A stretch of 32,000 bases of DNA, taken from NCBI GenBank assembly GCA_022646745.1, contig CP060262.1, positions 2,250,001-2,282,000 of the forward strand. The letters are read 5' to 3'. Every line of letters starts with the position of its first letter. Positions within the stretch are counted from its first letter, which is position 1. Below, piece after piece: positions 7,672-26,701 of this stretch. This DNA comes from Planctomycetales bacterium (GTDB taxonomy: Bacteria > 4484-113 > JAFGCY01). A program made the position numbers and the translations under genes. Under the pieces are notes generated by a model. It had not been told where the DNA came from, ran no database searches, and worked only from the letters and a program-made list of their open reading frames with translations.

Positions 7672-8441
7672 CGGGCGACCTCCTGCGAGACCGGGATGTT
7701 GCTGAACAGCGCTTCACACAAGCCTTCAGGTGCCTCGCGGATCGGCAGGTGGCCGCAGGCCGGGATACTGGTGACAATCGCGTGTGGCCAGAGATCCTGC
7801 CACATCTGCACTGACTTCTTCACTGCGGCGAAAGTTCGCTCGCCGGTGGCGATGCGTACCTCGCAGTCCAGGGATGAGAAACGATCGATGCCGGGATGCG
7901 TGCCGAACATCTCGAGGTAGCGGTATGTCACCTCGTGGTCGACGGAGCGGAAGCTCTGGGTCATGTCGGTGGAACGGTCCTCCCGGCCGGAGGCTAGGAC
8001 ATTCGTCAGCCAGCGGCCGACCGGGTTGGCAAATGTGCTGTTGTAGGCATGGCGGCCGAAGTCACGCCTGAGGAACACGCGGAAGTAGCCGGGCAGGAAG
8101 GCGAATGGATCGACCAGCAGCAGGCGGCGAGGGGCCGGGTCCAGCCGCAGCGCGAGTTCACAGGCGAACAGCGCGCCGCTGCAGTTGCCGAGCAGGGTGT
8201 CAATCGGACGGCCTTCCAGCCGCGATGCTTCTTCATATTCGCGCTGCAATAGTTCGGCTACTGCCTCGAAGCTGTATTCAGGCGGAGGGGCCGTGTTGCC
8301 ATAGCCCGGCGGGTCAACCGAATACAGGCAGGTGCCGGGTCCGAGCTGCGCGACCAGGGGCAGGTAGCAGTTGCGGTCCTCTCCCCAGCCGGGGATCGCG
8401 AAGCAGGCGTGGGTGCCGTTGCCAATACGCTCAGCGGGCAT
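7668..8441 (-). CDS. Alpha/beta-hydrolase fold protein with Cys nucleophile elbow (G-N-C-S-G)
   Basis: 257 aa. IPGWG lies near the N-terminus in the oxyanion region. Nucleophile elbow is LLGNCSGALFA with Cys87 at nt 8181-8183. C-terminal GHLPIREAP has a candidate catalytic His231 at nt 7749-7751. The start overlaps the crtI stop by 11 nt. Confidence 0.75.
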   Translation of the reverse strand: MPAERIGNGTHACFAIPGWGEDRNCYLPLVAQLGPGTCLYSVDPPGYGNTAPPPEYSFEAVAELLQREYEEASRLEGRPIDTLLGNCSGALFACELALRLDPAPRRLLLVDPFAFLPGYFRVFLRRDFGRHAYNSTFANPVGRWLTNVLASGREDRSTDMTQSFRSVDHEVTYRYLEMFGTHPGIDRFSSLDCEVRIATGERTFAAVKKSVQMWQDLWPHAIVTSIPACGHLPIREAPEGLCEALFSNIPVSQEVAR

Positions 8442-10916: not shown

Positions 10917-11085
10917 CTGATTTCCCCGCTGGCCTTCGCGCTGCTGGATAATGCGCTGCGCTGGCCCAGATCGCACCGGGAACGGGAGGACCATTTGCCC
11001 GCCCGCTTCCTGGCACATCAGATGCTATTGGGCAAACCTTGCGCTTCTGAGGCGGGAGTCTGGTGAAAGTATGGAGAAAGTCCGC

Positions 11086-11703
11086 TCAGGCAGCGACAGT
11101 GCGGCTGGCAATCACAAGGCACATCGTCGAATTGGCAGTGGCGTGCAGCAGCCAGGGAGCCAGGATGGAACCGCTGCTGATGCGCAGCCAGCCGGCGTAC
11201 AGGCCGCCCGCGAAGATCACAATGAGCAGCGGCCAGGCCTGCGGTGCGATCGCCAGCAGGATGAGGTGCGGCAGCAGGAAGATGAGCGCCTGCAGGATGT
11301 TTGCCCAGGGCGCTTTCACCCGGCGTGATAGGCTGCCGGCTATCAGGCCGCGGAAGAACAACTCCTCGCAGAAACCGGTCTGCAGGAATCCGTATAGCAG
11401 CGCCAGCAGGAAGGTCAGCGGCTTGATCCCGGCTCCGGCGAATCCGGCCATTGCATTGCCTTCATGTGTCATCAGCGAAAGGTCGAAGGGAACTAGGAAC
11501 AGGATGATCGCAACAGCCAGGCTGGCGATGGCGGCCTGCAGCAGGTAACGAGTCTCGCCAATGCAGAGACCGGCACGTTCAAGCACTGCCCTGATTCCAC
11601 GCTTGTGCTTCAGGCTGTGGAACAGGGCATAGATGCCGAGCGGGATGCCCGCCAGCACAATCAGGTTCACGACAGCGGTAGAGATAGCCTTGCTCGTGTC
11701 CAT
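11086..11703 (-). CDS. CPBP family intramembrane glutamic endopeptidase (CAAX/Abi-like)
   Basis: 205-aa polytopic membrane protein. Motif 1 is EELFFRG, motif 2 is FLLPH (FxxxH), motif 3 is LLHATANS. GGGGGA SD lies 5 nt upstream of ATG 11703. Confidence 0.85.
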   Translation of the reverse strand: MDTSKAISTAVVNLIVLAGIPLGIYALFHSLKHKRGIRAVLERAGLCIGETRYLLQAAIASLAVAIILFLVPFDLSLMTHEGNAMAGFAGAGIKPLTFLLALLYGFLQTGFCEELFFRGLIAGSLSRRVKAPWANILQALIFLLPHLILLAIAPQAWPLLIVIFAGGLYAGWLRISSGSILAPWLLHATANSTMCLVIASRTVAA

Positions 11704-11841: not shown

Positions 11842-14800
11842 TTGCTTTATCTCAGACAGGCCTGCGCGCTCATCAACATTGGAATCCTACTCATTCTTGC
11901 CTCCTGCGGCGGATCGCAGCAAACGCCGGACGCTGGACAGGCTGGACAGCAGCAGGCAGCCCTGCAATCAGACGCAAAAGTGGAAGACAACAGTGTCGAC
12001 GGATTGCTGGAGGTGCTGATGCAACCCCAGCTGCCACTGGCGGATGGCCTGCGCGGGGTCAGCATTGCCGCACCGCAACAACTATTGGGAAGGCTGGATG
12101 CGCAATTCGATGCGAAGACCACATTGTGTGCTGGGTCTGGCTGGTTCATCGAAGGAGCGGCCTACCAGGATGGATTGCCAAACAGCAATGTCTCGCGCGA
12201 CGGTGTCGAGCTGACCGAAGGCCTCTATTCGCCGAGCTATGACGGGATGGCGCTGGAAAGCGGATCGTATGCGATCTACCGCTGGAACCTGCGCGGCTAC
12301 AGCGGTGAGCAGACCATCGGCTTCAGCTGGGTGCCGGATATGGCACCGGAGGATGCGGGGAACTGGTACATCGGGCTCGCCAACCTGCAGGATGACCGCT
12401 GGGAGTTCTTCGAGGGCCCGGATGACAACGTGCTGTCGATCAGCAGTTTCGGCCCCTACCGCAGTGCCACCGGTGATGTGCTGCTGGCCTTCGTGCTGCT
12501 GGGCAGTACGGAAGCGGCGCTGGCCCACATGGAGGCCGGCGTGCCGGAGAAGCGCGCCACCGGCGAGCTGGGCCTGCCGGAGACGGCACCGGATTTCCCG
12601 CTGCTGGCCAAGGCGAGCGTGCTGCCGGCGGCCGTGGACCTGTCAGCGGAGTGCGCCCCCGTCAATGACCAGATGCAGTGGGGTGCCTGCACGGCATTCG
12701 CCGTCGGCGACAGCGCATACAACCACGAACTGGGGCAGGTCTACGGAGCCTACGGCTGGAACCTGCAGTCCCCCGCCAACCGGGTCAGCCCGAAGTACCT
12801 CTACATCAAGAGCGGTGAGCTGGGCGGCTTCCCGGCCAGCGGGGATTACGGCCGCTACACGGATGAAGTGATTGACAACCTGATGAACTACGGCACCGCC
12901 ACGGATGCCAATGCACCCTACGACATGGTGTATGACAACAACTGGAGCAGCGCGGCGCTTGAGGATGCCAAGGTGCTGAAGATTGAGTCCTGGCGCGAAG
13001 TGCCCTGCAACACGGATGACGGCATCGACACTGTCAAGCGCATCCTCGCCGAACAGGGCAAGGTGCTGCCGATGCGCGTCAACCTCGACATCACCTTCCC
13101 CTCGCTGCTGCCGGGCCAGGTCTGGTACTACACCTGGGGCACGATTGGCGGGCATGCGATGTGCATTGTCGGCTATGACGACAGCAAGGGTGCCAGCGGT
13201 GCATTCAAGGTGCGCAACAGCTGGGGCCGCTTCTGGGGTGACAAGGGCTACTGCTGGATCGCCTACGAAAGCTTCCGGAACCCCTATGCCTTCATCCGCT
13301 GCTACACGATGACGGAGGATTACGGAACGGATGTTGTCGACCGATTCGGGCTGAATGCGCCAGCCATCCCGCCGGTGAGTGGGCTGTCCGCCACGCAGGG
13401 CACCGAGGAGGGCGGCATCCACCTGGCATGGGATGCATACAGTGGCGGCGGTGCGCTGCATGTGATGCGCGACTCAATTGGCAACGAAGTGGCCGTGCTT
13501 GACCCGTCCGAGACTGAGTGGCTGGACGACACGGTCAGCGATCCGTACGGGCATGTTTACTGGGTGCAGGCTGATGGTGCACAGTCCAGCCCGGCAGTGA
13601 CGGGATACATCGCGGCCCTGCCGCAGGTGCTGGAGGTGCTGCCGCTGGAAGGTATATCAGATGAGGGGCTGAGCATCGGCGCGTCGGTGACAGGCAGCGG
13701 TCCGATGAGCTTCGTCTGGGACTTCGGGCTGGGGGCCACGCCTGCCAGTTCTATCCAGCAGCGGCCTTACATCACGCTGAAGAACCCCGGTACCTATGGC
13801 GGCACACTGACTGTCAGCAATGCGATCGGCAGTGATGAGTTCAGTTTCCAGTACACGGTGCTGCCGCAGCCGGTGCTGATTGACCACGTCTACGGCACGA
13901 GTGGCTACAGCGGGGACCAGGCGATCATCGGGATTGTCAGCGACGGGCCGCCGCAGGGCTACAGCTGGGATTTCGGCGATGCCTGCACGCCCTCCACAAG
14001 CACCGATGGGGAACCATTCGTGACCTATGGAGCACCGGGCGTGTATGAGGCGACGGTGACAATCACCAACCTGGTCGGCGAAGATACGCTCAATTTCCTG
14101 ATCGCGGTGCTGGACCCGACTGAAACGAAGTGGAGCCAGCCCGGCTTTGATTCCCGCCGCAGCCGCCAGAGCCCGCTGGTTGGTCCGCAGGACAATTCGC
14201 GGCGCTGGCGCTTCATGGCCAGCTACCCCGAAGTGAATGTCAACAGCAGCCATGTGATGGATGTGCTGGAATTGCCGTCCGGCGACCTGATCGTGCCCTG
14301 CAGCACGAATGGCAATGGCAACAAGCTTTTCCGGATCACCCCCGCTGGCGCGGTGGTCTGGAAGAATGAGTACCCATTCCCGCTGAAGGGCTACCTGACG
14401 CAGCCGGTCAGCTCGGCGGATGGAGCGAAGCTATACCTCACCAGCGGGCGCAGTGTGTATTGCCTGGACAGCGCTGACGGCGCGGAGATCTGGCGCAATG
14501 ACGGTGACTTCAGTGAGAGCTACCACGTGCTGCTGGAGAATGCCAACGGCGAGGTTTACGTCGTGCGTAACGGCCGCTGGCTGGGCGTGTTTGACGGCGA
14601 GGACGGCAGCCAGCTCGGGGAGGAGTTCGTGCTGTCGGACAGGAATGGCAGTGTCGCCAATGCCGTGCTGGCCCCGAATGGCACGCTGTTCATCAGCACC
14701 GAGTTCAACCATGAGGACCGGCTGGTCAGCTTCGACACGGTGGAAAACGTGCCGCTGCATTCGATCTTCATGCCGCAGCTGGTACGCGGGATGGCAATCA

Positions 14801-15522
14801 GCCCGGACGGCCTGACCATCTACACGCTTGACGACCAGTGCGATACGCGGGCCTTTGACACCAATACCTGCAACATGGTCTGGTGGCAGAAGGGCACCCG
14901 CGGGGCCTTCAGCTTCAACCGCAATGCACCGGCTGTGATGGCTGACGGCACGGTGGTGGTTGCCAACCAGGGTGGCAAGGTCTCTGCGCTGGATCCGGCT
15001 ACGGGCGCGATCATCTGGGACTACGACCTCGAACTGGACCCGGACTGCCGCAGCACGCCGGCCATCGGGCGTGATGGCACCGTCTACTTCGGCGGCTGCG
15101 ACACGCGGCTGTATGCGGTGAAGGAAGGTGCACTGGTCTGGCAGTCCGATCCGGCAGGCACCTTGTACTTCAGCGGTTCGCCAACGATTGCCAGTGACGG
15201 CACGCTGTACTGCGGCTCTGACAATGGCATGCTGTGGGCCTTCGGGACCGGCTCGGACGAGCTGTTCTACCCGGCCTACGTCAACTCGGTCAGCCCGCTC
15301 AGTGGAACGCCTGGCAGCATGCAGACCTTCATGGCTGACGTGGCCGGCAGCGGAGTGATCAGCTACCAGTGGGACTTCGACGGCGGGGCCACGCCTGACA
15401 AGCCGACGGATGCGGCCCCGGAGGTGACGCTGGGCCTGCCCGGCACCTACGACTGCAAGCTGACGGTCAGCAATGAGCTGGGCAACCATACCTTTGACTT
15501 TGAGCTGGTGGTGGGCAGCTAG
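11842..15522 (+). CDS. Giant lipoprotein P1: N-module + papain-like C1 cysteine peptidase + Fn3 + 2 PKD + PQQ-like beta-propeller + PKD
   Basis: The track ORF starts at TTG 11779. I prefer TTG 11842 because GGGGGAGG lies 8 nt upstream and the candidate -10 box sits inside the longer version. Signal peptide with lipobox ILAS|C. N-module at nt 12220-12543. C1 head at about nt 12631-13308, with Gln (NDQMQWGAC), catalytic Cys in GACTAFA (12688-12690), His in GGHAMCIVGYD (13153-13155) and Asn in VRNSWG (13216-13218). Fn3-like segment (GIHLAWDAY...YWVQA). PKD motifs FVWDFGLG, YSWDFGD and YQWDFDGG. Propeller blades DGTVYFGGCDTRLYAV and DGTLYCGSDNGMLWAF. Confidence 0.85.
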   Translation: MLYLRQACALINIGILLILASCGGSQQTPDAGQAGQQQAALQSDAKVEDNSVDGLLEVLMQPQLPLADGLRGVSIAAPQQLLGRLDAQFDAKTTLCAGSGWFIEGAAYQDGLPNSNVSRDGVELTEGLYSPSYDGMALESGSYAIYRWNLRGYSGEQTIGFSWVPDMAPEDAGNWYIGLANLQDDRWEFFEGPDDNVLSISSFGPYRSATGDVLLAFVLLGSTEAALAHMEAGVPEKRATGELGLPETAPDFPLLAKASVLPAAVDLSAECAPVNDQMQWGACTAFAVGDSAYNHELGQVYGAYGWNLQSPANRVSPKYLYIKSGELGGFPASGDYGRYTDEVIDNLMNYGTATDANAPYDMVYDNNWSSAALEDAKVLKIESWREVPCNTDDGIDTVKRILAEQGKVLPMRVNLDITFPSLLPGQVWYYTWGTIGGHAMCIVGYDDSKGASGAFKVRNSWGRFWGDKGYCWIAYESFRNPYAFIRCYTMTEDYGTDVVDRFGLNAPAIPPVSGLSATQGTEEGGIHLAWDAYSGGGALHVMRDSIGNEVAVLDPSETEWLDDTVSDPYGHVYWVQADGAQSSPAVTGYIAALPQVLEVLPLEGISDEGLSIGASVTGSGPMSFVWDFGLGATPASSIQQRPYITLKNPGTYGGTLTVSNAIGSDEFSFQYTVLPQPVLIDHVYGTSGYSGDQAIIGIVSDGPPQGYSWDFGDACTPSTSTDGEPFVTYGAPGVYEATVTITNLVGEDTLNFLIAVLDPTETKWSQPGFDSRRSRQSPLVGPQDNSRRWRFMASYPEVNVNSSHVMDVLELPSGDLIVPCSTNGNGNKLFRITPAGAVVWKNEYPFPLKGYLTQPVSSADGAKLYLTSGRSVYCLDSADGAEIWRNDGDFSESYHVLLENANGEVYVVRNGRWLGVFDGEDGSQLGEEFVLSDRNGSVANAVLAPNGTLFISTEFNHEDRLVSFDTVENVPLHSIFMPQLVRGMAISPDGLTIYTLDDQCDTRAFDTNTCNMVWWQKGTRGAFSFNRNAPAVMADGTVVVANQGGKVSALDPATGAIIWDYDLELDPDCRSTPAIGRDGTVYFGGCDTRLYAVKEGALVWQSDPAGTLYFSGSPTIASDGTLYCGSDNGMLWAFGTGSDELFYPAYVNSVSPLSGTPGSMQTFMADVAGSGVISYQWDFDGGATPDKPTDAAPEVTLGLPGTYDCKLTVSNELGNHTFDFELVVGS

Positions 15523-15651
15523 GCTGGATGCGTAAGGCTGTCAGTGCAAGTTAGGGAACGGAGAGTAGAGCTGACAGTTTCTCCACACTTTCTCCGGGGA
15601 GCGACCATTGCCGCGTGGTTTGATTCCCCATCGCACAGAGAGGAAGCAAAC

Positions 15652-16257
15652 ATGCAAGACAGACTGCGCAGGACGATTGGCCTGCTGATCGTGGCCATGC
15701 TGGCCATTCCCACGGGCGTGGGGGCAAGCATGGAATGGACTGACGGACTGCTGGATGACTGCTCGGCCACCGGACTGCAGGCCAGCATCGGCACCAGCTG
15801 GGAAGCGGTGCTTGACAACGATCGCGGCGGCCGCAGTTCAATTGAGATAGAGTCCGGGGAAGGAACGATCAGGGCCTCCGGCAAGCTTGCACGTGGCAGC
15901 CTGTTCGGTGGGCCGGGCACTGCCGGAATCATGCTGCCGCTGGCGACGGACGGCGGTGAGTACGACATCAACCAGTGGGACGGGATCCGCGTCACGGTGC
16001 GGCGCAGTGGTGCATCAATGCTGCTGCGCATCCACGGGATGGAAATCGAGAATGGCGACCACTTCGCCGTCGACATCCCGGCGAGCACTGAGTTCGCCAC
16101 CTATGAGTTCCCCTTCAGCCGAATGGGCCAGGTGATGTCGCCGCAGATGCCCTGGCGCGGGGACCGGGTGACCGCCGTCGAGTTGATCTGCTGGAGCTTC
16201 CCGGCTGACAGCTTCAGTTTTGAGCTGGACAGCATCGAGTTCTATCGCAGCGAATAG
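15652..16257 (+). CDS. Small secreted protein, CIA30/CBM11-like beta-sandwich (tentative)
   Basis: Trimmed to ATG 15652 (GAGAGGAAG SD 5 nt upstream), giving 201 aa with signal peptide MQDRLRRTIGLLIVAMLAIPTGVGA. W.AVLDNDRGGRS, DINQWDGIRVTVRR, FATYEFPFSRM and FSFELDSIEFYR resemble the CIA30-family pattern as I remember it. The family call is unverified. Confidence 0.6.
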   Translation: MQDRLRRTIGLLIVAMLAIPTGVGASMEWTDGLLDDCSATGLQASIGTSWEAVLDNDRGGRSSIEIESGEGTIRASGKLARGSLFGGPGTAGIMLPLATDGGEYDINQWDGIRVTVRRSGASMLLRIHGMEIENGDHFAVDIPASTEFATYEFPFSRMGQVMSPQMPWRGDRVTAVELICWSFPADSFSFELDSIEFYRSE

Positions 16258-16272
16258 ACAGAGAAAATGCCG

Positions 16273-16310
16273 AAGCGGCAGACCGGTGCTCCATGGCCGG
16301 CCTGCCGCTT
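16273..16310. terminator. Hairpin between convergent genes (candidate bidirectional/intrinsic terminator)
   Basis: AAGCGGCAG (16273-16281) pairs with CTGCCGCTT (16302-16310), giving a 9-bp stem and a 20-nt loop. On the minus strand it is followed by CGGCATTTTCTCT (a U-rich tail for the 16321-19656 gene). The plus-strand tail is not U-rich. Confidence 0.45.
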
Positions 16311-16320
16311 GCCTTGCTGC

Positions 16321-19300
16321 CTAGTTCTCCACTTCAGGGTTGAACTTGACGATCATCAGGTCATCCTTGCCGCCGCCGTTGTCAACCGTGCCCTCCAGGT
16401 TGACCGCGCTGAGCGGGTAGCTGGTGGCGGATGCCCCGGAGCCGCTGGCGCTGATCGCCGGGCTGGCCTCAGTCACTCCGGGATTGCCGAAGTTGCCCTG
16501 GCCCATCTGCACCGGGTCCCAGAAGGGGGTGAAGCGCTTGGCACGGGTGCCGGCCACGTAGAGCTTGCCGGCTGCGCTGTAGGCCATGTCCTCCAGCTGC
16601 GGGTAGCCGGTGCCGTCCTCGTAGCGCTCCTCCCTGAGCAGGGTGCCCTCAGAGCTGATCTTCGCCATCACGTGGAAGTACTCACCGCCGACTTCGTCGT
16701 CAAGGAAGGTCACTGCGAACAGGTCGCCCGCCGAGTCCACGGAGATGCCGCGGCCGTAGGTGTTGACATTGCTGCCGCCGCGAGCGTCGTAGGCCCGCAC
16801 CCAGCTGAGCTCGGGGTTGCTGATGTCGTAGCGCACCACCAGGATGCCGTGCTCACCGAAGATGTAGTTCTCGCCGGTGGCGGTCAGGTAGACATTGCCG
16901 AAGTCGTCAGTCATCACGTCCGTGTCGTACTCGTTCTGGCTGTTGCCCCAGCTCTTCTGGGCCAGCACATCGCCGTTGGCCGGGTCGAACTGCAGCATCA
17001 GCAGGTCGCTGCCGCGGGAGGAGTTGACCACCGCCTGCCCGGCGACGAACACCTGGCCGGCGGAGTTGACATCGATGCCCTCGCCGAAGTCGTTGCCCGA
17101 GGTGCCCCAGCGCTTGCTCCACAGCAGGCTGCCGGCCGGGCTGATGCCGTGCACGAGGATGTCGATGTTGCCCTCGCCGAAGATGTTGTTGCCGACGGCG
17201 AACACGTTGCCGTTCGCGTCAGTCGCCACATCGGACAGCCTGCCGATGCCCAGTGAGATGCTCCACTCCTCCTGGCCGTCCGCCGCGTCCAGGCGGGAGA
17301 GCACTGAGGTGACGGCTCCGGCCTTGATCTCGGAGTATGCCACGTAGATGTTGCCCAGGTTGTCAGCCACGATCCCGCGGGCGTTGTCACGGCCGCCGGT
17401 GCCGTAGGCGCGCGACCAGATCACGTTGCCGCCGGCGTCGTACTTGACCACCAGTGCATCCCGGTCACCGAGGCCACCGATGGTGCTGCCGGCCACGTAG
17501 GCCGCGCCGGTGTAGTCCACGCAGACCGCCTCGATCTCCTCGTCATCGCCAAGCCCCCAGCTGTGGGCCCATTCCTCCTGCACCGGGTCGACGACGAGCT
17601 GGAACTCGTAGGTGGCGGTGCCGTTTGCGCCGGTCACTTCAAGGGTCGCATCGTAGATGTCATCACCAGTCAGCACAACGGTCGGGCTCGGCTCAGTGCT
17701 GGTATTGGGAACCGCTCCGCCGCCGAAGTCCCAGGCGTAGGTCAGGGTGCCGTTGCCAATCACGTCAGCGCTGAACTGGATCAGGGACTCGCTGCGGCCG
17801 CTGAGCGGCAGCACATCGCGGATGAAGGGGTCGGCGGCACGGAAGCCGGTGTCGCTGGCCGCCACGCTGGCGAAGCCGCCCACCTTGGTCTTGATCCAGT
17901 AGGCATAGGGCACGCCGGGGACGGCGGTGGTGTCGTCGTAGCTGGTGCTCTCCGGGGAGATCTCATCAATCAGGTTGTCATCGGTGCCGCGGTAAATCTC
18001 GTAGGAGGTCGCGCCGCTGGCCGCCGTCCAGCTCAGGCGGACCTTGTCAACGAACTCGCCGCTGCTGGCCTGGAAGTTTGCTGGCGGGTAGATGGTGGCG
18101 GTCTGGTTGCAGTACGGGGCTGCCACCAGGTCCGGGTTGAAGTCGAGGAACAGCTCGACCGCCGTGACGTAGTTGCTCTTGCTCGCCGCATTGGTGAAGG
18201 TGCTGTAGCCGATCCAGCAGTTGCCGTCATTGCCCCAGTCGGAGCCCCAGCTGTTGCGGACGTAGAAGGCCTGCTTGGCGTCGTTGTAGCCGATGATGCA
18301 CATCGCGTGGCCGCCGATGGACGGGCCGTTGTAGTTCCAGACATTGCCCTTGTCATACTTGGTGCTGCTGAAGTCGTCATCCAGCGAGGTCGTCATGTAG
18401 ACGGGCTTCTTCAGGATGGCAAGCGTGTGCTTGATGCGGTCGACATCCTGCAGCGTGGAATTGCCGGTGGAGAAGATGTACTGGAAGTTGGAGATGCGGA
18501 ACTTGTCAGCCTCGTCATGCGTGGCCTGGGTGAAGTTGTCCGCGCAGCTGAAGGAGCTGCCGTAGGGGGCGAGGATCACCGGCGGGGTGCCCTGGTTCAT
18601 CAGGGTCGCCATCACGTCGCTGGTGTAGCGTCCCGGTGAGGGGCAGCCCAGCCCGCTCAAGTCGGACTCAAGGTACAGGTAACGCGGGCTGACCTGGTTC
18701 CAGCCGCTCTGCGGCCAGCTTGCAAGGTTCCAGCCGGCGGCCTGGTACATGAAGTTCAGCTGGTAGTCCAGTGCGCCGTGGCCTGCGGCCCAGGCGGTGC
18801 AGGAACCGACGCTGCCCTGGTTGCCAACCGGGGCCATGCCGGCCTCGACGGATGCCGAAGAGGGCAGGCTGACGGTGCCGAACGGCGGCATGTAGTCGCC
18901 GGCGATCATCTCACCGGGCTTCGGCAGGAGGCCGGTGCCACGCAGCTCAGGGTCACCGAGGCTTATGCGCCCCAGTTCGAGCTGCTTCTCGCCCATCATC
19001 ACCAGTGCGACGAGGATGGTGCCGTCCTCACGCTCGTAGGGGGCAAGGCTGTCGACGGTCAGGGTGGAGTCATCCGGACCCATGTACCAGGTCCAGCGGC
19101 CCTCGTCCCAGTTGGCGAAGCCGACATACATGTCCTGCGGGAAGTCCGGGTCGTAGCCCTTGGACCACTCGAAGCCAACGGACTGCAGCTCAGTGCTGGC
19201 GGCGTAGCCCGGTGCGACGAAACGGTAAGTGGCCATCGCAAGGCCGGCACCGCCCTCGCCGGGCAGCCAGTCCGGGGAGAACACGGCATAGCCGGCGTCC

Positions 19301-19656
19301 ATCACCACATTCTGGCTGGGCAGCGTCGGGTCATAGTCCGCACCTTCCTTGTCCAGGTCATCCTGCACGAAGGAGACGGACTTGCCGGTAAGATCCGGCA
19401 GGCTGAGCTCACCGGGCTGGGCAAAGGATGCGCCCTTGCCGGACAGGCTGAAGGGGTCATCATCGACCGGGGCGTCAGGCCGGACCGGGACGGCGACCAG
19501 GCCATCCTCGGTCAGGCCGAAGTTGCCTGCAATCAGGTCGGAGGAGGAGCCCTCCTGGGATGCATCCAGCCCGGCGGTCCCGCCGCCACCGCCGCATCCC
19601 GCGACAATCACCATAATGACCAGCCCACACAGCAGGCTGTACAACAGATTCTTCAT
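16321..19656 (-). CDS. Giant lipoprotein P2: N-module + papain-like C1 cysteine peptidase + Fn3 + PKD + SBBP-type beta-propeller
   Basis: Trimmed to ATG 19654-19656 (GAGGTG SD 6 nt upstream), starting MKNLLYSLLCGLVIMVIVAG|CGGGGG (lipobox). N-module at nt 18955-19293. C1 head has Gln (GNQGSVGSC), Cys (18799-18801), His in GGHAMCIIGYN (18307-18309) and Asn in VRNSWG (18253-18255). Fn3 (VRLSWTAASGATSYEIYRG). PKD (YAWDFGGG). The C-terminal ~400 aa repeats the pattern G(T/N)(G/S)G.D.(A/G).GI.VD..G(N/Q)(I/V)(Y/F)VAG ... (L/V)V(K/R)YD..G...W, typical of SBBP beta-propeller repeats. Confidence 0.85.
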   Translation of the reverse strand: MKNLLYSLLCGLVIMVIVAGCGGGGGTAGLDASQEGSSSDLIAGNFGLTEDGLVAVPVRPDAPVDDDPFSLSGKGASFAQPGELSLPDLTGKSVSFVQDDLDKEGADYDPTLPSQNVVMDAGYAVFSPDWLPGEGGAGLAMATYRFVAPGYAASTELQSVGFEWSKGYDPDFPQDMYVGFANWDEGRWTWYMGPDDSTLTVDSLAPYEREDGTILVALVMMGEKQLELGRISLGDPELRGTGLLPKPGEMIAGDYMPPFGTVSLPSSASVEAGMAPVGNQGSVGSCTAWAAGHGALDYQLNFMYQAAGWNLASWPQSGWNQVSPRYLYLESDLSGLGCPSPGRYTSDVMATLMNQGTPPVILAPYGSSFSCADNFTQATHDEADKFRISNFQYIFSTGNSTLQDVDRIKHTLAILKKPVYMTTSLDDDFSSTKYDKGNVWNYNGPSIGGHAMCIIGYNDAKQAFYVRNSWGSDWGNDGNCWIGYSTFTNAASKSNYVTAVELFLDFNPDLVAAPYCNQTATIYPPANFQASSGEFVDKVRLSWTAASGATSYEIYRGTDDNLIDEISPESTSYDDTTAVPGVPYAYWIKTKVGGFASVAASDTGFRAADPFIRDVLPLSGRSESLIQFSADVIGNGTLTYAWDFGGGAVPNTSTEPSPTVVLTGDDIYDATLEVTGANGTATYEFQLVVDPVQEEWAHSWGLGDDEEIEAVCVDYTGAAYVAGSTIGGLGDRDALVVKYDAGGNVIWSRAYGTGGRDNARGIVADNLGNIYVAYSEIKAGAVTSVLSRLDAADGQEEWSISLGIGRLSDVATDANGNVFAVGNNIFGEGNIDILVHGISPAGSLLWSKRWGTSGNDFGEGIDVNSAGQVFVAGQAVVNSSRGSDLLMLQFDPANGDVLAQKSWGNSQNEYDTDVMTDDFGNVYLTATGENYIFGEHGILVVRYDISNPELSWVRAYDARGGSNVNTYGRGISVDSAGDLFAVTFLDDEVGGEYFHVMAKISSEGTLLREERYEDGTGYPQLEDMAYSAAGKLYVAGTRAKRFTPFWDPVQMGQGNFGNPGVTEASPAISASGSGASATSYPLSAVNLEGTVDNGGGKDDLMIVKFNPEVEN

Positions 19657-19759
19657 GACATTCACCTCACGTTCTTGTTCAGCGATCCCGGCGGGCTTCC
19701 TGACCCGGCTTGGAATCAACCGTTCGTTATAGGCAAATGCAGAAATTTCTAAACCTCGA

Positions 19760-19765
19760 ATTATA
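19760..19765 (-). promoter_or_regulatory. Candidate -10 box (perfect TATAAT on minus strand) in an AT-rich island upstream of the 16321-19656 gene
   Basis: Plus-strand ATTATA at 19760-19765 reads TATAAT on the minus strand. It is embedded in the palindrome GAATTATAAAATTC (19758-19771), within the only AT-rich stretch (about 19735-19790) of this region, roughly 105 nt upstream of ATG 19656. No convincing -35. Confidence 0.35.
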
Positions 19766-19956
19766 AAATTCTCGAAAAATAGTCGAAATGACCCGTGGTT
19801 GCGCTCTTGCGGTGCTACAAGTTATATGGGGGTACTGCGAGTGTTTGGAGGGAATCAGGTGAACCTGTGCCATGCACGCAAGGCTTATCCACCTGCGGCC
19901 TGGAGGACCGGGGTACTCCAGGTTGTATCACTCCGGTTGATTCCTACGCATCTGAC

Positions 19957-22917
19957 TTACGGCGCAGCACTCTCGAAGGCGAACAGCGTGCCGTTGGCGC
20001 CAAGGATATAGACCCGGTTGTCCGGCCCGATGGCCACGGAACTGTAGGCCAGGTCCGTTTCCGTGTCATAGTCCCATGCGATGTCGCCGTTGGGGGCCAC
20101 ACAGCGCAATATGCCGAGGTTGTCGCCGTAGTAAATGTAGCCGTCCTTGTCAACGCTGGGCATTGCGTACTGCGTCTTGCGGGAGAGTGTGCCGGTCCAG
20201 AGTTCCGCACCAGCCAGGTCAATCCGGCTGCATTCGTCGCCGATTGTCACGAGATTGTCGAGGCCGGGCATCAGTGCGATGCCGGTCACGTCGTCATTGT
20301 CTACAGGGTAGCTGAAGACGAAGCTGCCATTCTTCCATGCGTAAAGCTTAGGACCGCTGGTTGCGGCCACGAAGTCGCCATTAACCACATCATGCAGGAT
20401 CACTGCGGTCTCATCCACGGTTCCGCTTGCTCCCAGTTCCCCACCGGCGGAGCCATCGGTGTTGACGATGTAGACCCGGTTGCTGCCGCCACAGACGTAT
20501 ACACGGCCGTCACTGCCGATCGATGGCGCGCCGAAACGGCTGCCCTTGCTGTAGGACCAGGTCTCCGAACCGTCGCTCATTGCCAGCTTGAGTGTGAGGT
20601 CCGGTCCGCTGAAAATCTCGCCGCTGTAGTAGACACTGTCTTCGAAAAGGGTCGGCGGCCCGAAGTTTCCATTGGTATATGTGACTGACCAGTCCTCGGA
20701 GCCGTCCGGCTTCAACCTGAAAATGTAATCCGATTCCGAACCGTAGATGTACCCGTTGTCATCGATCGCAAGGCCGGCGCTGATGCTCTGGTTGCGCGCG
20801 GTGGCCCAGCGCAGCGAGCCGTCCTGCGCCAGCGAGTAAACATAGGGGTTATCCACACCGACGGTGAAGTAGATTTCGCCGAATGCACCGATCACCGGGC
20901 TGCTATGGCCGGTGATGCCGGTTTCGTAGCTCCAGTCCAGCTGTCCGTCATGCGGACCCGCCAGGCTGCTCAGTCCGGTATGCGCGGGGTCTGCACAGTA
21001 CATGTTCCAGTCACCGGCGCCGGGGTCAATGCCGATCGCCCAGCCCTCGGCGGATTCACTGGCGATGCTGCTGCCGGTCTCATTGGTGGCAACGATGGTG
21101 TAGGTGTGGTGTGTGTCATCAGACAGGCCCTCGTCGAGCCAGCTGAACAGGCCGACCACGGAATCGACGGGGCTGCCGCTGCCATCCCGGTAGATGTCGA
21201 AGCCGTTGGCATCGAACTGCTCATCCCAGCTGAGCTGGACATAGTCGGCGAATGTGCCCTGGCTGGCGGTCAGCCCGGTCGGCTGGGCGGGGATGACTGC
21301 ATCGTTGGGGGCAAAGGCCGTCAGGGTGCCGTCCGTCGCCGGGGCCAGCAGCATGCCGCCCTCGCAGATCGCGAATCCACAGCGGTAGCTGACAGCCGAG
21401 TCGTACTGCCACTGCAGCTGCAGGTCAGGGGTGACCGCATAGACGCTGCCGGAGGCCGTGCCGAAGAACACGGTGCCGTCCGCATCGATCACCACGCTGC
21501 CCTCGATCGGGCTGCCCGTGATGAAGGTGTCAAGCAGGTTGGCATCGCTGTCGTACTTGTACAGCTTGCCGTCCATGTTGGCGATGTAGATGTTGCCGTC
21601 CGGGCCCTCCGCGGGAGCACCCTCGAAGCTGGTTCCCGCGGCATGGGTGCCGATCTGGTTGCCATCGGCATCGACAGAGTAGAAGTTGCCATCCTGTGTC
21701 CCATAGACCAGCTTGCCGGTCGAGGTGATGCAGGGGCTGGCATGCGCCTCGCCCGTGCCGCTGTGCTCCCAGTTGAGTTCGCCGCCAGGGCTGACGCTGG
21801 CCAGTGCGCCGCCGGCCGTGCAGACATAGATCGTGCCGTCGGCCGCGATGGCAGGCGGGCAGTAGATCCCGCTTGAGGTGTCGAGGTGCCACTGCTCAAT
21901 GCCGAGGTAATCCAGCTTGTAGAGCTGGCTGCCCTGGGTGCCGACGATGATCGAACCGTCCTCGAGGATTGCCGGGCTGGAGTAGACCTCACGCGGCAGC
22001 TTGGTGTGCCAGGCGCGGATGCCGGCGCGGTTGACGGCGTAGACGTAGTCGGCGATGTCACCGAACACCACATGCCCCTGCGGGCCGATTGCGGGCGTTG
22101 AGCTGATCTGGTCCAGCACCTCGTGCTGCCACAGCAGGCTGCCATCGGTGTCCAGCGCAAACAGCGAGCCCTTCTGCTCCACCGGTTCATAGGACCCGAG
22201 GAAGATCGTGCCGTCCGCATTCTGCACCGGGGCGGAATGCAGCAGCGATTTCGGCAGCACGGTCTTCCAGTGCACGTTGGCACTCTCCACCACGTTGTCT
22301 GTGGAGTAGCCGCGCCGCTGGTTGGAACCACCAGCCGTTGGCCAGGCGCCGAGGTCCGTCGGGATGTTGGAGAAGTAGACCTCCACGCTGTCCAGCAGGT
22401 AGTACTCGCCGTCGTAGCCGAGCATTGCGAGGTAGGTGTAGCCGCCGGGGCTGGTGTACTGGCCGGGATCACCGCCGACGGAGAAGTTGTCAGCGGGCTG
22501 GTTGAACTCGATCATGCGCCAGCGGCCGTAGGTGTAGTCAGCCAGCAGCATGTAGATCGGGGAGAAGCCGGTGGCCTTTTCACTGGTGGTGTAGCCGACG
22601 GAAGCCAGCTCATCCACCGCACTGGAGTCGAAGCGGTAGATGGCGTAGGTCTGCTGGCCGATCAGCGCACCGAGGCGGATGCTCGTGTTTTCCACGCTGC
22701 TGAGGGCATTCGAATCCTGGAACTCATTGCCGAGGCGGGTGAAGCCAGCTAGGCTGGCTCCCTTCATTGCATCGAGCTCACCGATGCCGGGCAGTGCACT
22801 ACCGGCCGGAGTGGAATCCAGTGCTTCCGCATCGCCGGCGGGGTTGTGCCTGGCGGCCCCGCAGGCCGTAAGCAAACAGATGATTGCGATGGTCAGGGTG
22901 CTAAAGAGCAGTTTCAT
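19957..22917 (-). CDS. Lipoprotein with N-module + PQQ-like beta-propeller + Fn3 + second beta-propeller (no peptidase domain)
   Basis: 986 aa. GGGGAGACGA lies directly before ATG 22917. Signal peptide with lipobox MKLLFSTLTIAIICLLTA|C. N-module at nt 22372-22695 (TYAIYRF...VGYTT...LLADYTYGRWRM). Blades DGTIFLGSY, DGSIIVGTQGSQLYKL, DGTIYVCTAGGAL, DGNIYIANMDGKLYKY and DGTVFFGTASGSVYAV. Fn3 (YVQLSWDEQFDANGFDIYRDG...YTIVATN). A second, more degenerate propeller follows (GEIYFTV, NGYIYGS, DGRVYVCGGSNRVYIV, DGYIYYGDNLGILRCV, DNRVYILGANGTLFAF). Confidence 0.85.
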   Translation of the reverse strand: MKLLFSTLTIAIICLLTACGAARHNPAGDAEALDSTPAGSALPGIGELDAMKGASLAGFTRLGNEFQDSNALSSVENTSIRLGALIGQQTYAIYRFDSSAVDELASVGYTTSEKATGFSPIYMLLADYTYGRWRMIEFNQPADNFSVGGDPGQYTSPGGYTYLAMLGYDGEYYLLDSVEVYFSNIPTDLGAWPTAGGSNQRRGYSTDNVVESANVHWKTVLPKSLLHSAPVQNADGTIFLGSYEPVEQKGSLFALDTDGSLLWQHEVLDQISSTPAIGPQGHVVFGDIADYVYAVNRAGIRAWHTKLPREVYSSPAILEDGSIIVGTQGSQLYKLDYLGIEQWHLDTSSGIYCPPAIAADGTIYVCTAGGALASVSPGGELNWEHSGTGEAHASPCITSTGKLVYGTQDGNFYSVDADGNQIGTHAAGTSFEGAPAEGPDGNIYIANMDGKLYKYDSDANLLDTFITGSPIEGSVVIDADGTVFFGTASGSVYAVTPDLQLQWQYDSAVSYRCGFAICEGGMLLAPATDGTLTAFAPNDAVIPAQPTGLTASQGTFADYVQLSWDEQFDANGFDIYRDGSGSPVDSVVGLFSWLDEGLSDDTHHTYTIVATNETGSSIASESAEGWAIGIDPGAGDWNMYCADPAHTGLSSLAGPHDGQLDWSYETGITGHSSPVIGAFGEIYFTVGVDNPYVYSLAQDGSLRWATARNQSISAGLAIDDNGYIYGSESDYIFRLKPDGSEDWSVTYTNGNFGPPTLFEDSVYYSGEIFSGPDLTLKLAMSDGSETWSYSKGSRFGAPSIGSDGRVYVCGGSNRVYIVNTDGSAGGELGASGTVDETAVILHDVVNGDFVAATSGPKLYAWKNGSFVFSYPVDNDDVTGIALMPGLDNLVTIGDECSRIDLAGAELWTGTLSRKTQYAMPSVDKDGYIYYGDNLGILRCVAPNGDIAWDYDTETDLAYSSVAIGPDNRVYILGANGTLFAFESAAP

Positions 22918-22976
22918 TCGTCTCCCCTAGGTGCAGCATCCGGATTGGTCCCGGCTGCCAGGCATAGCCGGGTTCC

Positions 22977-22982
22977 ATTATA
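22977..22982 (-). promoter_or_regulatory. Candidate -10 box (TATAAT on minus strand) for the 19957-22917 gene
   Basis: Plus-strand ATTATA at 22977-22982 reads TATAAT on the minus strand, about 60 nt upstream of ATG 22917 in the 112-nt divergent intergenic region. The -35 is weak. Confidence 0.3.
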
Positions 22983-23017
22983 AGGTGCGGGCAGTACGGA
23001 TGCGGCTTCCTGACCGT

Positions 23018-23023
23018 TATAAT
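23018..23023 (+). promoter_or_regulatory. Candidate -10 box (perfect TATAAT) 6 nt upstream of ATG 23030, implying a leaderless or near-leaderless transcript
   Basis: TATAAT at 23018-23023, followed by GGGCGG and then ATG 23030. The usual -10 to TSS spacing would put the transcription start on or next to the A of the ATG. The -35 is weak. Confidence 0.3.
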
Positions 23024-23029
23024 GGGCGG

Positions 23030-26000
23030 ATGAGCTACAGGGACAGGACAGTGAGGAATTGCAGGATCGGATTGGTGATCCTGCTATGCAGCATCGCCGC
23101 AGGCTGCGGTGGTGGCAACGAACTTCCCGCAGCAGGACCGTCGCAGCAGGCTGCCCAGCCACTGCCGGAAGCGCCTGCCAATGCAAGGCAGGTCAAGCTG
23201 GCGGTACGGATGAATCCGCAGCAGGAAATCAGCGAGCAGCCGGGCGGATTGAAGGCCGCCAGCGCGATCAGCATGCAGCTTTCCAGCATGCCACTGCCCG
23301 GGCGCAGCACTTCCGCCTCGGAAGTCGAGGTCGCTGCGGTGGATTACCGCACGGACCTGCTGAACAGCCGGGTGGAGGTGAAGGGCGATTACCTTGTTTA
23401 CCGTCCGGTCTGGAACAATGCGATCTTCGACGACCTGAGTGATGCGGCCTATGCAATCTACCAGGTGGACCTGACCGGATACACCGGTGATCCGACCATC
23501 GGCTTCAACTGGGCTGAGAACGGCCTGCCGCGCATTCCGGACAAGTACTTCGTCGGCCTGGCGAACTGGGATGCCAACCGCTGGAGCTGGTTCGACGGCC
23601 CGCTGGACCAGGTGCTGACACTGGATGACCTGGCTCCCTATACGGATGCCAACGGCAAGCTGCTGCTCAATGTGCTGGCCCTGCAGCGCGAAAGTGTGGT
23701 GGTGCTGCGCAACATGACGATTGGTGCGCCGGAGATGCGTGGTACCGGCTTCGAGTATGAGGACATCCCGGTGCAGACCAGTGCGCCTGCGCTGTATGTG
23801 CCGACCCTGCCGGGCAGTGTCGACCTGCGCGCCGGCTGTGCACCGATCAATGACCAGGGTTACTGGGGCAGCTGCACGGCCTTTGCGGTTGGCGACGGCG
23901 CCTACAACTATGAGCTGTACAGCATCTACGAATCACTGGGCTGGGACCTGACGGGCACAGCCTTCCGGGTCAGCCCGAAGTTCCTCTACATCGAAAGTGG
24001 CAAGGACCAGGGCTTCCCGCCGGGTGGCGACTACGGCCGCTGGACTGATGTGGTGGCCGACGGCCTGACCCGTTTCGGCATTGCCACCGAGCTGAATGCC
24101 CCCTATGACTATGACTACAATGACAACTGGTCGATCGCGGCACTGAATGACGCCGCGGTGCTGAAGAGCACCGGCTATGTCCCACTCGCCAGCCACAGCA
24201 CGGCGGCGATCGAGGGCATCAAGTCCGTGCTGGCCTTCCAGCAGCGCCCGGTGCTGGTCAGCACCCAGGTGGACTACGGCCTGATCACCTACGCCCCCGG
24301 CCAGGTCTGGCATTTCCAGGGGCCGAGCTTCGGCGGGCATGCGATGCTGATCGTCGGTTATGACAATGGCAAGGAAGCCTTTCTCGTGCGCAACAGCTGG
24401 GGCACGGACTGGGGCGAGGACGGCTACCTGTGGATGGCTTACGACACCCTGACGCATCCCTACAACTGGTATGTGCAGTGCGGCTACATCACGGATGAGT
24501 ACAACGAGGCCACGGCCCAGCGATTCACCGGCAACTCGATCAGCCTGCTGCCGCCTGACAACCTGGAGGCCTCGCAGGGCACCGCTGGCAGCAGCATCGC
24601 GCTGAGCTGGACGCCTGTGGACGGTGCCGACGGCTACCGCATCTACCGTGACACCCGGCAGAACCTGGTGCAGCAGGTCGGGGCGGTCAGTGAATACACC
24701 GACAACAGCGTGCTTGATGAACTGGCGCACTCCTACTGGGTGACGGCGCTGAAGGACAGCTCGGAAAGTGCCCACAGTGCACCGGACCTCGGCTATGTGG
24801 CGCAGTCCCCGCAGGTCAGCGGCGTGTCCCCGACGAGCGGGGCCGAGGGCCAGACGATCCGCTTCATCCCGCAGGTCAGCGGTGACCCGCAGGCCACCTT
24901 CAGCTGGGACTTCGGCGGTGGTGCCAGCCCGAACACAAGCAGCGATCCAGGGCCGGTGGTCGTGCTCGGCAGCGAGGGCAGCTACGACGCCAGCCTGACG
25001 GTGATTGGCGCGGAAGGCAACCAGAAGTTTGACTTCACACTCGAGGTCAAGCTTAACCAGCCGCCGGCTGCCTACCTGTTCGACCCGAACAACGGCAAGG
25101 CCATCGCACCCTATGAGTGCACATTGGATGCCACCAGTGGCGACAGCGACGGCTGGATTGTGCTGTACGAGTTTGACTGGGAGAATGACGGCATCTATGA
25201 CCTGGTGACAACCGAGCCGGTTGTGCAGCATACATACACGGAGCTCGGTACAGTCACAGCGAAGGTGCGCGTAATGGATGATGCCGGGCTGTATGACACG
25301 GCGACGGAGCAGATCACTATCGAACCGGATAACTTCGCTCCATACCCGACGATCACCGCCACCCCGCCGTCCGGGCCTGCCCCGCTTGATGTCGAGTTCG
25401 ACTCTGCGGGCAGCTATGACCAGGACGGCTTCCTGATCTACTACGAGTGGGACTTCGAGAATGACGGCACGATCGATGCCGAGGGCGACAGCCTGACAAC
25501 GACTGACCATGTCTACCCGGCGGACGGCACCTACACCGCCATGCTGCGGGTGACTGACAACGAGGGAGCGACGGGTGAGATCACCACGGAAGTCGCGGTC
25601 GGCCTGCCTCTGATCGGGGGCTGGACCAGCCACGCGATCCGAACCTGGACGGACGGCACCAACTCGCGCCGCATCAATGCAACCCTCGTCGGTGGCAACC
25701 CGGCGGTCAGTGTGACAACGAACAACACCGGCATGGAGTATGTCAGCAGCGGCGTGGCCGTGCCGGATGACAGTTCCGACTGGTCCGTAATGACGGCGCT
25801 TGCCAACGGCAGCCTGCCGAACTCCACGAAGCCCTATGGACTGTGCAACCTCTCAGGTGTGCCGCTGGTCAGCTACTCCGGGGGCTCGCTGTCGTCCATC
25901 AAGTGGACCGGTGCGAGCTGGCTGGACATGAATGTGGACGGCACGGCGAACTGTGGTGAATCCAGCAGCATTGCAATCGTTGCGGGCAAGCCGGCGATTG

Positions 26001-26701
26001 CCTACACCTATCCCAGTAACCCGAACAGCATCTACTACGCCTATTCGACTGAGTCTGATCCTGCGTTGGCTGGCGACTGGGTGGTGACGGAACTCGAGAC
26101 GGACGGCAACCCCGTTGTCAGCGACACCCTGCAGCTGATCGAGATCGGCGGAATGCCGTATGTGGCTTATGGCAAGAATGGCGAGGCACCGAATACGCAG
26201 AAGCGGCTGTGGCTGGCCCGCGGCCTGACTGCCACCCCGACCGGTACTGCTGACTGGGCGCGGCATGAAGTCGACCCGGCGAAGAATACCGGGCTGTACA
26301 TGTCGATCACGGAACTGGGCGGCCGGCCCGCGATTGCCTATGGCTTCGCCGACGGCCCGCTCGGGATGCGCTTCGCCTGGGCGGACAGTGCGAGCCCGGC
26401 AAGCACGGATGACTGGAACATCATGGCGGTCGAGACCGGCAAGCGCGGGATACCCTCGCTGGCGGTGGTCGGCGGCGTGCCGATGTTCAGCTACGTTGCC
26501 AACTCACCGAACGGCGGACTGACGCTGGCGAAGGCCAGCAGCAGCACTCCGGCCGGTGACGGGGACTGGAGCTTTGAGCGGCTGATCCCGCAGGACATCG
26601 GCGGCGGCCAGAGCCCGCTGCTCGAGGTCAATGGCCTGCCGGCGATCATCTACGGCTGGAACGCCGCTGCCAATGTGGTGTTCATCACACCTGCACCCTA
26701 G
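23030..26701 (+). CDS. Giant lipoprotein P3: N-module + papain-like C1 cysteine peptidase + Fn3 + 3 PKD + unassigned 7x GxPAIAY-repeat (propeller-like) domain
   Basis: Trimmed to ATG 23030, starting MSYRDRTVRNCRIGLVILLCSIAAG|CGGG (lipobox). ATG 23000 and GTG 22931 are alternatives. N-module at nt 23384-23725. C1 head has Gln (NDQGYWGSC), Cys (23873-23875), His in GGHAMLIVGYD (24338-24340) and Asn in VRNSWG (24392-24394). Fn3 (IALSWTPVDGADGYRIYRD). PKD motifs FSWDFGGG, YEFDWENDG and YEWDFENDG. The C-terminal repeats occupy nt 25613-26698. Confidence 0.85.
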   Translation: MSYRDRTVRNCRIGLVILLCSIAAGCGGGNELPAAGPSQQAAQPLPEAPANARQVKLAVRMNPQQEISEQPGGLKAASAISMQLSSMPLPGRSTSASEVEVAAVDYRTDLLNSRVEVKGDYLVYRPVWNNAIFDDLSDAAYAIYQVDLTGYTGDPTIGFNWAENGLPRIPDKYFVGLANWDANRWSWFDGPLDQVLTLDDLAPYTDANGKLLLNVLALQRESVVVLRNMTIGAPEMRGTGFEYEDIPVQTSAPALYVPTLPGSVDLRAGCAPINDQGYWGSCTAFAVGDGAYNYELYSIYESLGWDLTGTAFRVSPKFLYIESGKDQGFPPGGDYGRWTDVVADGLTRFGIATELNAPYDYDYNDNWSIAALNDAAVLKSTGYVPLASHSTAAIEGIKSVLAFQQRPVLVSTQVDYGLITYAPGQVWHFQGPSFGGHAMLIVGYDNGKEAFLVRNSWGTDWGEDGYLWMAYDTLTHPYNWYVQCGYITDEYNEATAQRFTGNSISLLPPDNLEASQGTAGSSIALSWTPVDGADGYRIYRDTRQNLVQQVGAVSEYTDNSVLDELAHSYWVTALKDSSESAHSAPDLGYVAQSPQVSGVSPTSGAEGQTIRFIPQVSGDPQATFSWDFGGGASPNTSSDPGPVVVLGSEGSYDASLTVIGAEGNQKFDFTLEVKLNQPPAAYLFDPNNGKAIAPYECTLDATSGDSDGWIVLYEFDWENDGIYDLVTTEPVVQHTYTELGTVTAKVRVMDDAGLYDTATEQITIEPDNFAPYPTITATPPSGPAPLDVEFDSAGSYDQDGFLIYYEWDFENDGTIDAEGDSLTTTDHVYPADGTYTAMLRVTDNEGATGEITTEVAVGLPLIGGWTSHAIRTWTDGTNSRRINATLVGGNPAVSVTTNNTGMEYVSSGVAVPDDSSDWSVMTALANGSLPNSTKPYGLCNLSGVPLVSYSGGSLSSIKWTGASWLDMNVDGTANCGESSSIAIVAGKPAIAYTYPSNPNSIYYAYSTESDPALAGDWVVTELETDGNPVVSDTLQLIEIGGMPYVAYGKNGEAPNTQKRLWLARGLTATPTGTADWARHEVDPAKNTGLYMSITELGGRPAIAYGFADGPLGMRFAWADSASPASTDDWNIMAVETGKRGIPSLAVVGGVPMFSYVANSPNGGLTLAKASSSTPAGDGDWSFERLIPQDIGGGQSPLLEVNGLPAIIYGWNAAANVVFITPAP

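Follow-up and report, generated by a model that had tools for sequence, protein, structure and literature searches.

How does one bacterial locus come to hold three large lipoproteins that begin alike and end differently, and what might such proteins do? The question is raised by a 32-kb stretch of a Planctomycetales genome, from an uncultured bacterium of wastewater (contig CP060262.1, positions 2,250,001 to 2,282,000; about 63% G+C), which we call the window and within which all positions given here are counted. The three genes, P1 (11842..15522, plus strand), P2 (16321..19656, minus strand) and P3 (23030..26701, plus strand), encode proteins of 1,100-1,250 aa, and an earlier, sequence-only reading had taken them for papain-family (C1) peptidases whose shared head had been joined to three different tails by shuffling among these genes. 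Our analysis favours, as the likelier account of the whole, a set of old paralogous, lipid-anchored C1A peptidases belonging to a modular lipoprotein family, in which the tails would direct proteolysis. The components of this account do not stand equally firm: we place high confidence in the anatomy and the evolutionary description, and find about as much reason to accept as to doubt that tail-directed proteolysis is the function.

The catalytic head

Comparison by blastp aligned the three proteins collinearly over roughly residues 22-710, at 33-37% identity, through the signal, an N-terminal module (hereafter the N-module), the C1 domain, an Fn3-like domain and a first PKD domain; beyond about residue 710 they did not align with one another. 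The description of a common head followed by unlike tails is therefore accurate, and P1-P3 are predicted to be lipoproteins, as had been said, a lipobox being present in each (LASC at 11899-11913 in P1, plus strand; VAGC at 19588-19602 in P2, minus strand; AAGC at 23099-23113 in P3, plus strand). Under a criterion of a signal peptide ending in [LVI][ASTVI][GAS]C, all six members of the family in the window carry a lipobox, the remaining three (P4, P5 and P6, described below) having LTAC, LAGC and AVSC, respectively. The P1 start codon is a TTG at either 11842 or 11779, and the P2 reading frame spans 16321-19719 on the minus strand, with an ATG at 19656. The P3 frame (22931-26701, plus strand) opens at a GTG at 22931, but starting from the ATG at 23030 yields an ordinary signal peptide whose n-region is positively charged. 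The public gene call for P3 (P0180, 1,208 aa) begins at residue 49 of the frame, i.e., 11 residues ahead of the lipobox cysteine, and its name at NCBI is only 'PKD domain-containing protein', so that current annotation hides the enzyme.

The C1 domains occupy 12610..13317 in P1 (plus strand), 18157..18885 in P2 (minus strand) and 23798..24520 in P3 (plus strand), and all three exceed the Pfam cut-off for Peptidase_C1 (PF00112; 37.8, 35.1 and 57.1 bits, respectively, against 20.7), as the sequence-only reading had anticipated. The C1A signature, Gln(19)-Cys(25)...His(159)...Asn(175)-Ser-Trp(177), is present in order in each protein, and the motifs that had been named are all there: QMQWGAC, QGSVGSC or QGYWGSC around the nucleophile, with a Gln-Cys spacing of 6, then GGHAM and VRNSWG. 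The catalytic codons assigned to P1 (Cys 12688, His 13153, Asn 13216) and P3 (Cys 23873, His 24338, Asn 24392) read TGC, CAT and AAC; those assigned to P2 proved to be the low coordinates of minus-strand codons (18799-18801, 18307-18309 and 18253-18255), which likewise read Cys, His and Asn. Identity between the C1 domains is 50% for P1 and P3, 42% for P1 and P2 and 41% for P2 and P3, in keeping with an estimate by eye that the first pair are identical at roughly half of positions and that P2 is more divergent. Also as claimed, an I29 propeptide is lacking: P1-P3 had no match to Inhibitor_I29 (PF08246) in Pfam at E<=0.01.

Whether Cys, His and Asn form a papain-type triad had been left to structure prediction. 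An AlphaFold2 model of the P3 head (mature residues 58-625, built on a 71-sequence alignment and comprising the N-module, C1 and Fn3-like domains) has a pLDDT of 89.7 and a pTM of 0.88, and in it the peptidase is predicted to adopt the papain-like two-lobe fold. The leading Foldseek matches were 3OIS (xylellain, E 7e-15), papain, cathepsin S and procathepsins L and K, with target-normalised TM-scores of about 0.8, as for cathepsin S; the TM-score to xylellain is about 0.71. A search of PDB sequences with the P3 C1 domain also returned xylellain first (E 2e-12), ahead of ficin and of cathepsins L, S and B. Given their 41-50% identity, the domains of P1 and P2 would be expected to fold in the same way. 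By every computational test applied, P1-P3 are members of C1A.

A module with and without the peptidase

The segment between the tether and the C1 domain is a beta-rich N-module of about 145 aa, located at 12130..12567 in P1 (plus strand; local HMM, E 5.5e-53), at 18928..19368 in P2 (minus strand, also by local HMM) and at 23312..23752 in P3 (plus strand), where most of the modelled residues have a pLDDT >90. A six-frame scan of the window counted exactly six copies. Three belong to proteins that share the lipobox-tether-N-module head with P1-P3 and have no C1 domain: P4 (19957..22917, minus strand; N-module, PQQ propeller, Fn3-like domain, PQQ propeller), P5 (2653..4290, minus strand; N-module, PQQ propeller) and P6 (26704..28650, minus strand and convergent with P3; N-module, PKD, PQQ propeller). 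Against Pfam and PDB sequences at E<=10 the N-module gave only chance-level matches (among them a phage Hoc Ig domain at E 0.016), it matched nothing in NCBIfam, and the 50 matches listed by Foldseek for the P3 head were all C1 structures, with none for the N-module.

A profile of this module, searched against 1.84 billion representative proteins, recovered 1,154 clusters (E<=1e-3); the 150 matches listed all place the module near the N-terminus. Among 156 N-module sequences that we analysed, including the six from the window, 88 have no peptidase. The N-module is thus the constant N-terminal domain of a large lipoprotein family and is not peptidase-specific.

Two short motifs, on the other hand, separate family members with a C1 domain from those without. 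The first, VxM(R/Q/N)PQ, lies in the tether about 40 residues upstream of the N-module (VRMNPQ at 23204..23221 in P3, plus strand; 12013-12030 in P1, plus strand; 19474-19491 in P2, minus strand) and is found in 46 of 57 C1-bearing members as against 4 of 66 C1-less ones. The second, ExR(G/A)TG, marks the junction between the N-module and C1 (EMRGTG at 23732..23749 in P3, plus strand; 12547-12564 in P1, plus strand; 18931-18948 in P2, minus strand) and occurs in 45 of the 57 and in none of the 66; in our alignment A2 the G..E.RG.G columns are invariant, and Thr is present in at least 90% of rows. In the P3 model a strand immediately before VRMNPQ has a pLDDT of about 90 and the rest of the tether is of low confidence or disordered, which suggests that this strand docks on a folded domain. 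The glycine of ExRGTG aligns with a conserved Gly in the N-terminal extension of short xylellain-type enzymes, and the N-terminus of xylellain reportedly blocks its active site. By analogy, the two motifs may be elements of a latch that keeps the peptidase latent, or of autoprocessing.

This analogy can be carried further. The N-module might be a previously unrecognised domain that sorts or docks surface lipoproteins in a little-known bacterial lineage (metagenome-assembled genomes of the UBP7 / 4484-113 kind) and that defines a combinatorial set of binders and enzymes at the surface. A pseudo-substrate latch in the tether, VxM-(R/Q/N)-P-Q, with a hydrophobic residue at substrate position P2 and proline at P1', would then keep the peptidases latent. 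We regard this combined proposal as rather improbable; were it true, the pseudo-substrate latch would constitute a zymogen mechanism unlike that of the I29 propeptide.

A different route to latency would have the N-module itself act as a functional prodomain, replacing I29 and packed over the cleft so that the enzyme remains a zymogen until its removal. The sequence-only reading was right that the module sits at the propeptide position; moreover, the pTM of the head model would imply a fixed packing of the N-module on C1, and the ExRGTG junction between them is conserved. However, a dedicated propeptide would have little place in the peptidase-less P4-P6 and in the many other proteins without C1 that the module also heads, and this argues against its being a stand-in for the propeptide. 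Nor are the N-modules of C1-bearing proteins set much apart: they are only slightly closer to one another (34-39% identity) than to others (19-35%). For these reasons we consider a prodomain unlikely.

The third possibility is that P1-P3 do not degrade external proteins at all and serve as maturases or sheddases that cut the tethers of their own family, either themselves or P4-P6, thereby releasing or activating the propellers. Peptidase-bearing and peptidase-less genes are interleaved in this locus and in related genomes, and the conserved VxM(R/Q/N)PQ of the tether resembles a substrate. But this motif is nearly absent from the peptidase-less members, and if it is a cleavage site it would serve the peptidases themselves only. 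We think it no more probable that these enzymes are maturases than that the N-module is a prodomain. Our preferred reading remains that of a shared module that would serve in anchoring, docking or export, in front of peptidases directed elsewhere.

Tails built from few cassettes

Downstream of C1, the sequence-only reading had posited a common spacer of one Fn3 and one PKD domain. The PKD part of this is upheld. The Fn3 profile (PF00041) scores below its cut-off of 25 bits in both P2 (22.2 bits, E 1.6e-4) and P3 (20.8 bits, E 4.5e-4) and has no match in P1 or P4, although the P3 model has a 7-strand sandwich at this position; we therefore speak of an Fn3-like domain (13363-13602 in P1 and 24545-24778 in P3, both on the plus strand). 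With the PKD profiles PF00801 and PF18911, three stretches each were detected in P1 (66-72 bits) and P3 (88-89 bits), and the single P2 domain (20-21 bits) falls under the Pfam cut-off, yet shares 37-45% identity with the first PKD domain of P1 and of P3. The three PKD domains of P3 (24806-25609, plus strand) agree with the two extra copies that had been counted there. P1 differs from its description as having one extra PKD: two copies precede its propeller (13621-14130, plus strand) and a third follows it (15274..15516, plus strand).

The propeller of P1 (14128..15255, plus strand) is of the PQQ_2/BamB-like type, as had been said (PF13360, 84.3 bits against a cut-off of 27.6); its weak match to TIGR03300, at 44 bits against an equivalog cut-off of 285, indicates that it is not a BamB equivalog. 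The tail of P2 (16540..17574, minus strand) is SBBP-type, again as read (PF06739, 31.8 bits against 20.5), and matches the Leptospira LipL53-family model NF047494 at E 7.5e-15, with 55 bits, below the cut-off of 400. The 7x repeat noticed at the end of P3 exists, and is modelled as a 7-bladed beta-propeller (25610..26698, plus strand; here T3prop): the AlphaFold2 model has a pLDDT of 90.9, a pTM of 0.91 and 28 strands, i.e., seven 4-stranded blades. It belongs to a family without a Pfam model; most of its 106 homologues have no Pfam annotation and none is annotated over T3prop, and the P3 tail had no match in NCBIfam. Among these homologues, many of those about 540 aa long also open with a divergent N-module.

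Three different propellers had been proposed, and for P3 against the other two this stands: hhalign gives the P3-type profile a probability of 0-0.3% of being related to the P1 and P2 types. The P1-type and P2-type profiles, in contrast, match each other at a probability of 99% (E 5e-18), and by these profiles the two tails are remote homologues. There are thus two propeller superfamilies in these tails, not three.

To ask how the parts combine outside the window, we classified the best 150 of the 1,154 N-module clusters with local HMMs (N, N-module; f, Fn3-like; k, PKD; Q, S and T, the propeller types of P1, P2 and P3). Where a C1 domain follows the N-module, the order is C1-Fn3, then zero to three PKD domains, then a Q, S, T or Q+T propeller; where it does not, the same PKD and propeller tails stand directly behind the N-module, for example as N-PKD-S (24), N-PKD-T (8), N-Q (7) and N-PKD-Q (6). 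The exact architecture of P3 recurs in 10 representatives and that of P2 in 6. None of the three propeller types is tied to the C1-Fn3 cassette: each was seen in proteins that have it and in proteins that lack it, and the order of the domains varies widely, with mixtures such as N-C1-f-k-k-Q-k-T. Because the N-module, C1-Fn3, PKD and the three propeller types combine so freely, the shuffling is real, and the census provides strong evidence for modular assembly. In other metagenome-assembled genomes (MAGs; L007, 6958-13314, and L006, 5775-11008), family genes of yet other architectures sit in tandem pairs, for example an N-C1-Fn3-PQQ gene ahead of a PQQ-PKD-SBBP gene, or a pair of neighbouring N-C1 genes, so that clustering of family members is general.

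The shuffling did not, however, take place among P1, P2 and P3. Each has full-length collinear relatives elsewhere: P0183, P0199 and P0181 for P1 (46-50% identity), P0207, P0219 and P0192 for P2 (32-37%) and P0190, P0209 and P0196 for P3 (42-45%). The arrangement of P3 and P6, in which an N-PKD-PQQ gene lies convergently after a P3-type gene, is conserved in L001 and L003, two other MAGs. The T3 propellers linked to C1 cluster together, with P0181 and P0184 as exceptions (bootstrap 58). It follows that the three proteins belong to three old, vertically inherited groups and that the rearrangements predate this genome; the part of the sequence-only reading that stands is modular shuffling, and the part that falls is exchange among these three genes, since whole architectures already exist elsewhere. 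Full relatives with both N-module and C1 came from only a handful of similar MAGs among the species-representative genomes searched. Rearrangement goes on, at a slower pace: the closest relatives of P1, with 1,500-1,670 aa, have a further T3-type propeller as their last domain, and P1 stops after its third PKD. A remnant of such a propeller, sought 3' of P1 as far as 16320, was not found.

A rival history is simpler: whole genes would have been duplicated and diverged, and a single ancestral tail would have drifted without any exchange of domains. In its favour are the collinearity of P1-P3 over about 700 residues, the remote homology of the P1 and P2 propellers, and the fact that the best matches of each tail are proteins of the same overall architecture. 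Such drift would not account for a P3-type propeller without profile similarity to the other tails, for differences in the number and order of PKD domains, or for the absence from P1 of the terminal propeller of its closest relatives. Nor would it account for the P1 propeller, which matches those of P5, P4 and P6 by blastp (E down to 4e-19; 26% identity to that of P5) and has no blastp match to the tails of P2 and P3. Finally, every tail type is also found directly behind an N-module without C1. For P3, plain duplication is largely refuted, and for the locus as a whole we judge it very unlikely.

Function, precedents and setting

The account that we favour can be set out as follows. P1-P3 are three old paralogues, each a predicted lipid-anchored C1A cysteine endopeptidase and probably exposed outside the cytoplasmic membrane. 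They are members of a modular lipoprotein family restricted to one lineage, whose constant part is the lipobox, a disordered tether and the beta-rich N-module and whose variable part is drawn from few cassettes: C1 with its Fn3-like domain, PKD spacers, and propellers either of PQQ/SBBP type or of a second type, lectin-like and 7-bladed. The PKD domains would form a stalk, and the terminal propeller would bind a glycan or protein ligand and thereby deliver the peptidase to one specific substrate or surface. That one activity is in this way aimed at different targets, as originally suggested, is plausible.

Several observations weigh against this account. The lipobox fits a periplasmic location as well as one at the surface, and the likeness of the P3 tail to lectins is at the level of the fold only (13-16% identity, TM-score about 0.7). 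Domain-wise phylogenies had been proposed as a check: the neighbour-joining (NJ) tree of the heads does recover P1-type and P3-type clades, but with bootstraps of only 31-60, and the N-module tree lacks resolution, the best split bearing on whether C1-bearing members form a clade having a bootstrap of 0. Because of this weak support we make no claim about the order of fusion events. A further difficulty concerns catalysis. Across 64 heads of the family, the Gln is invariant, Cys is kept in 57, His in 61 and Asn in 63; the seven that have lost the nucleophile carry Ser, Gly or Ala in its place, and some relatives must accordingly work without catalysis. None of the seven (P0004, P0249, P0208, P0231, P0202, P0213 and P0221) is in the window, three of them also have Gln for His, and they are probably pseudo-peptidases or Ser variants. 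P0004 is annotated by JGI as a thiol-disulfide isomerase/thioredoxin, apparently owing to its C-terminal region. These substitutions lend some colour to the idea that the C1 domains are catalytically dead binding modules, which is hardly credible for P1-P3 themselves, where Gln, Cys, His, Asn, Ser and Trp are all kept in their canonical motifs.

Comparison with known systems places these proteins between several precedents. Cwp84 of Clostridioides difficile joins a C1A peptidase to a lectin-like domain and to CWB2 cell-wall-binding repeats, which anchor it, and has an I29-like propeptide. It is the only multidomain prokaryotic C1A peptidase with a solved structure (PMC10380794), and it resembles P1-P3, as predicted here, in being a bacterial surface papain-family peptidase fused to non-catalytic, beta-rich positioning domains. 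The means differ: P1-P3 have a lipobox anchor, the N-module, PKD stalks and propellers and share none of the accessory domains of Cwp84, and a Pfam search of P1-P3 gave no match to CWB2 repeats or I29. The closest catalytic domain by both sequence and fold is that of xylellain and other short bacterial C1A enzymes (PMC10380794), which also lack an I29 propeptide and have a short N-terminal extension before the LP..VDL start of the domain; xylellain is a single-domain protein of about 290 aa, in contrast to lipoproteins of the size of P1-P3.

Among the propellers, those of P1 and P2 resemble BamB-like PQQ_2 and Leptospira LipL53-type SBBP proteins, known groups of propeller-bearing lipoproteins, but their scores are far under the equivalog cut-offs, and they form C-terminal modules of peptidases and do not stand alone. 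The PLL lectins of Photorhabdus bind fucose, with sugar sites between the blades. In the Foldseek search with the P3 tail, PLL lectins came first, followed by GH145 and sialidase-like propellers; the PLL/PHL structures 5C9O, 6RFZ and 8Q83 share its seven 4-stranded blades over about 350 residues (TM-score about 0.70), but there is no sequence-level relationship, and the GH145 and sialidase-like propellers score nearly as high.

A recent survey of prokaryotic C1A peptidases gives one to three C1A genes as the usual number per genome; it noted that numerous members are complex multidomain proteins and left these, which are essentially unstudied, out of its analysis (PMC10380794). Our literature searches, which covered this architecture and the lineage, found no description of the P1-P3 architecture, the N-module family or the T-type propeller family, and all three appear to be undescribed. 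Two domain families without a Pfam model, the N-module and the lectin-like 7-bladed propeller, are thereby brought into view, and the locus amounts to a natural experiment in which one catalytic head is coupled to different tails beside sister lipoproteins that have such tails without the catalytic head. If the tails do set the substrate range, it offers a compact model for the targeted extracellular proteases of uncultured bacteria.

The surroundings of the three genes comprise a HerA/DUF87-type ATPase at the left end of the window (206-2650, plus strand), a carotenoid biosynthesis cluster (4345-11018, minus strand) with phytoene synthase, two phytoene-desaturase-like oxidoreductases, a GT2 glycosyltransferase, an alpha/beta hydrolase and a 'carotenoid biosynthesis protein', and an Rce1-like/CPBP intramembrane protease (11086-11703, minus strand) directly upstream of P1; a cytochrome c and a malic enzyme are also present. 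None of these flanking genes has an obvious functional link to P1-P3. The gene between P1 and P2 (15544-16257, plus strand) encodes a small secreted protein in which a CIA30-like (CBM-like) domain is recognised (E 1e-6). Together with P4, it falls inside the segment 11842-26701 that the sequence-only reading covered; neither was mentioned there, nor were P5 and P6. Public databases hold entries labelled 'bacterium' or 'Planctomycetales bacterium', including GCA_020440665.1 (JAGRNS010000029.1) and a 4.11-Mb contig, in which P4 and P6 have identical counterparts and P3 one at 99.9% identity. The neighbouring accession series is a UBP7 MAG of Hong Kong activated sludge (PMC8495973), and we infer that the lineage is probably affiliated with UBP7.

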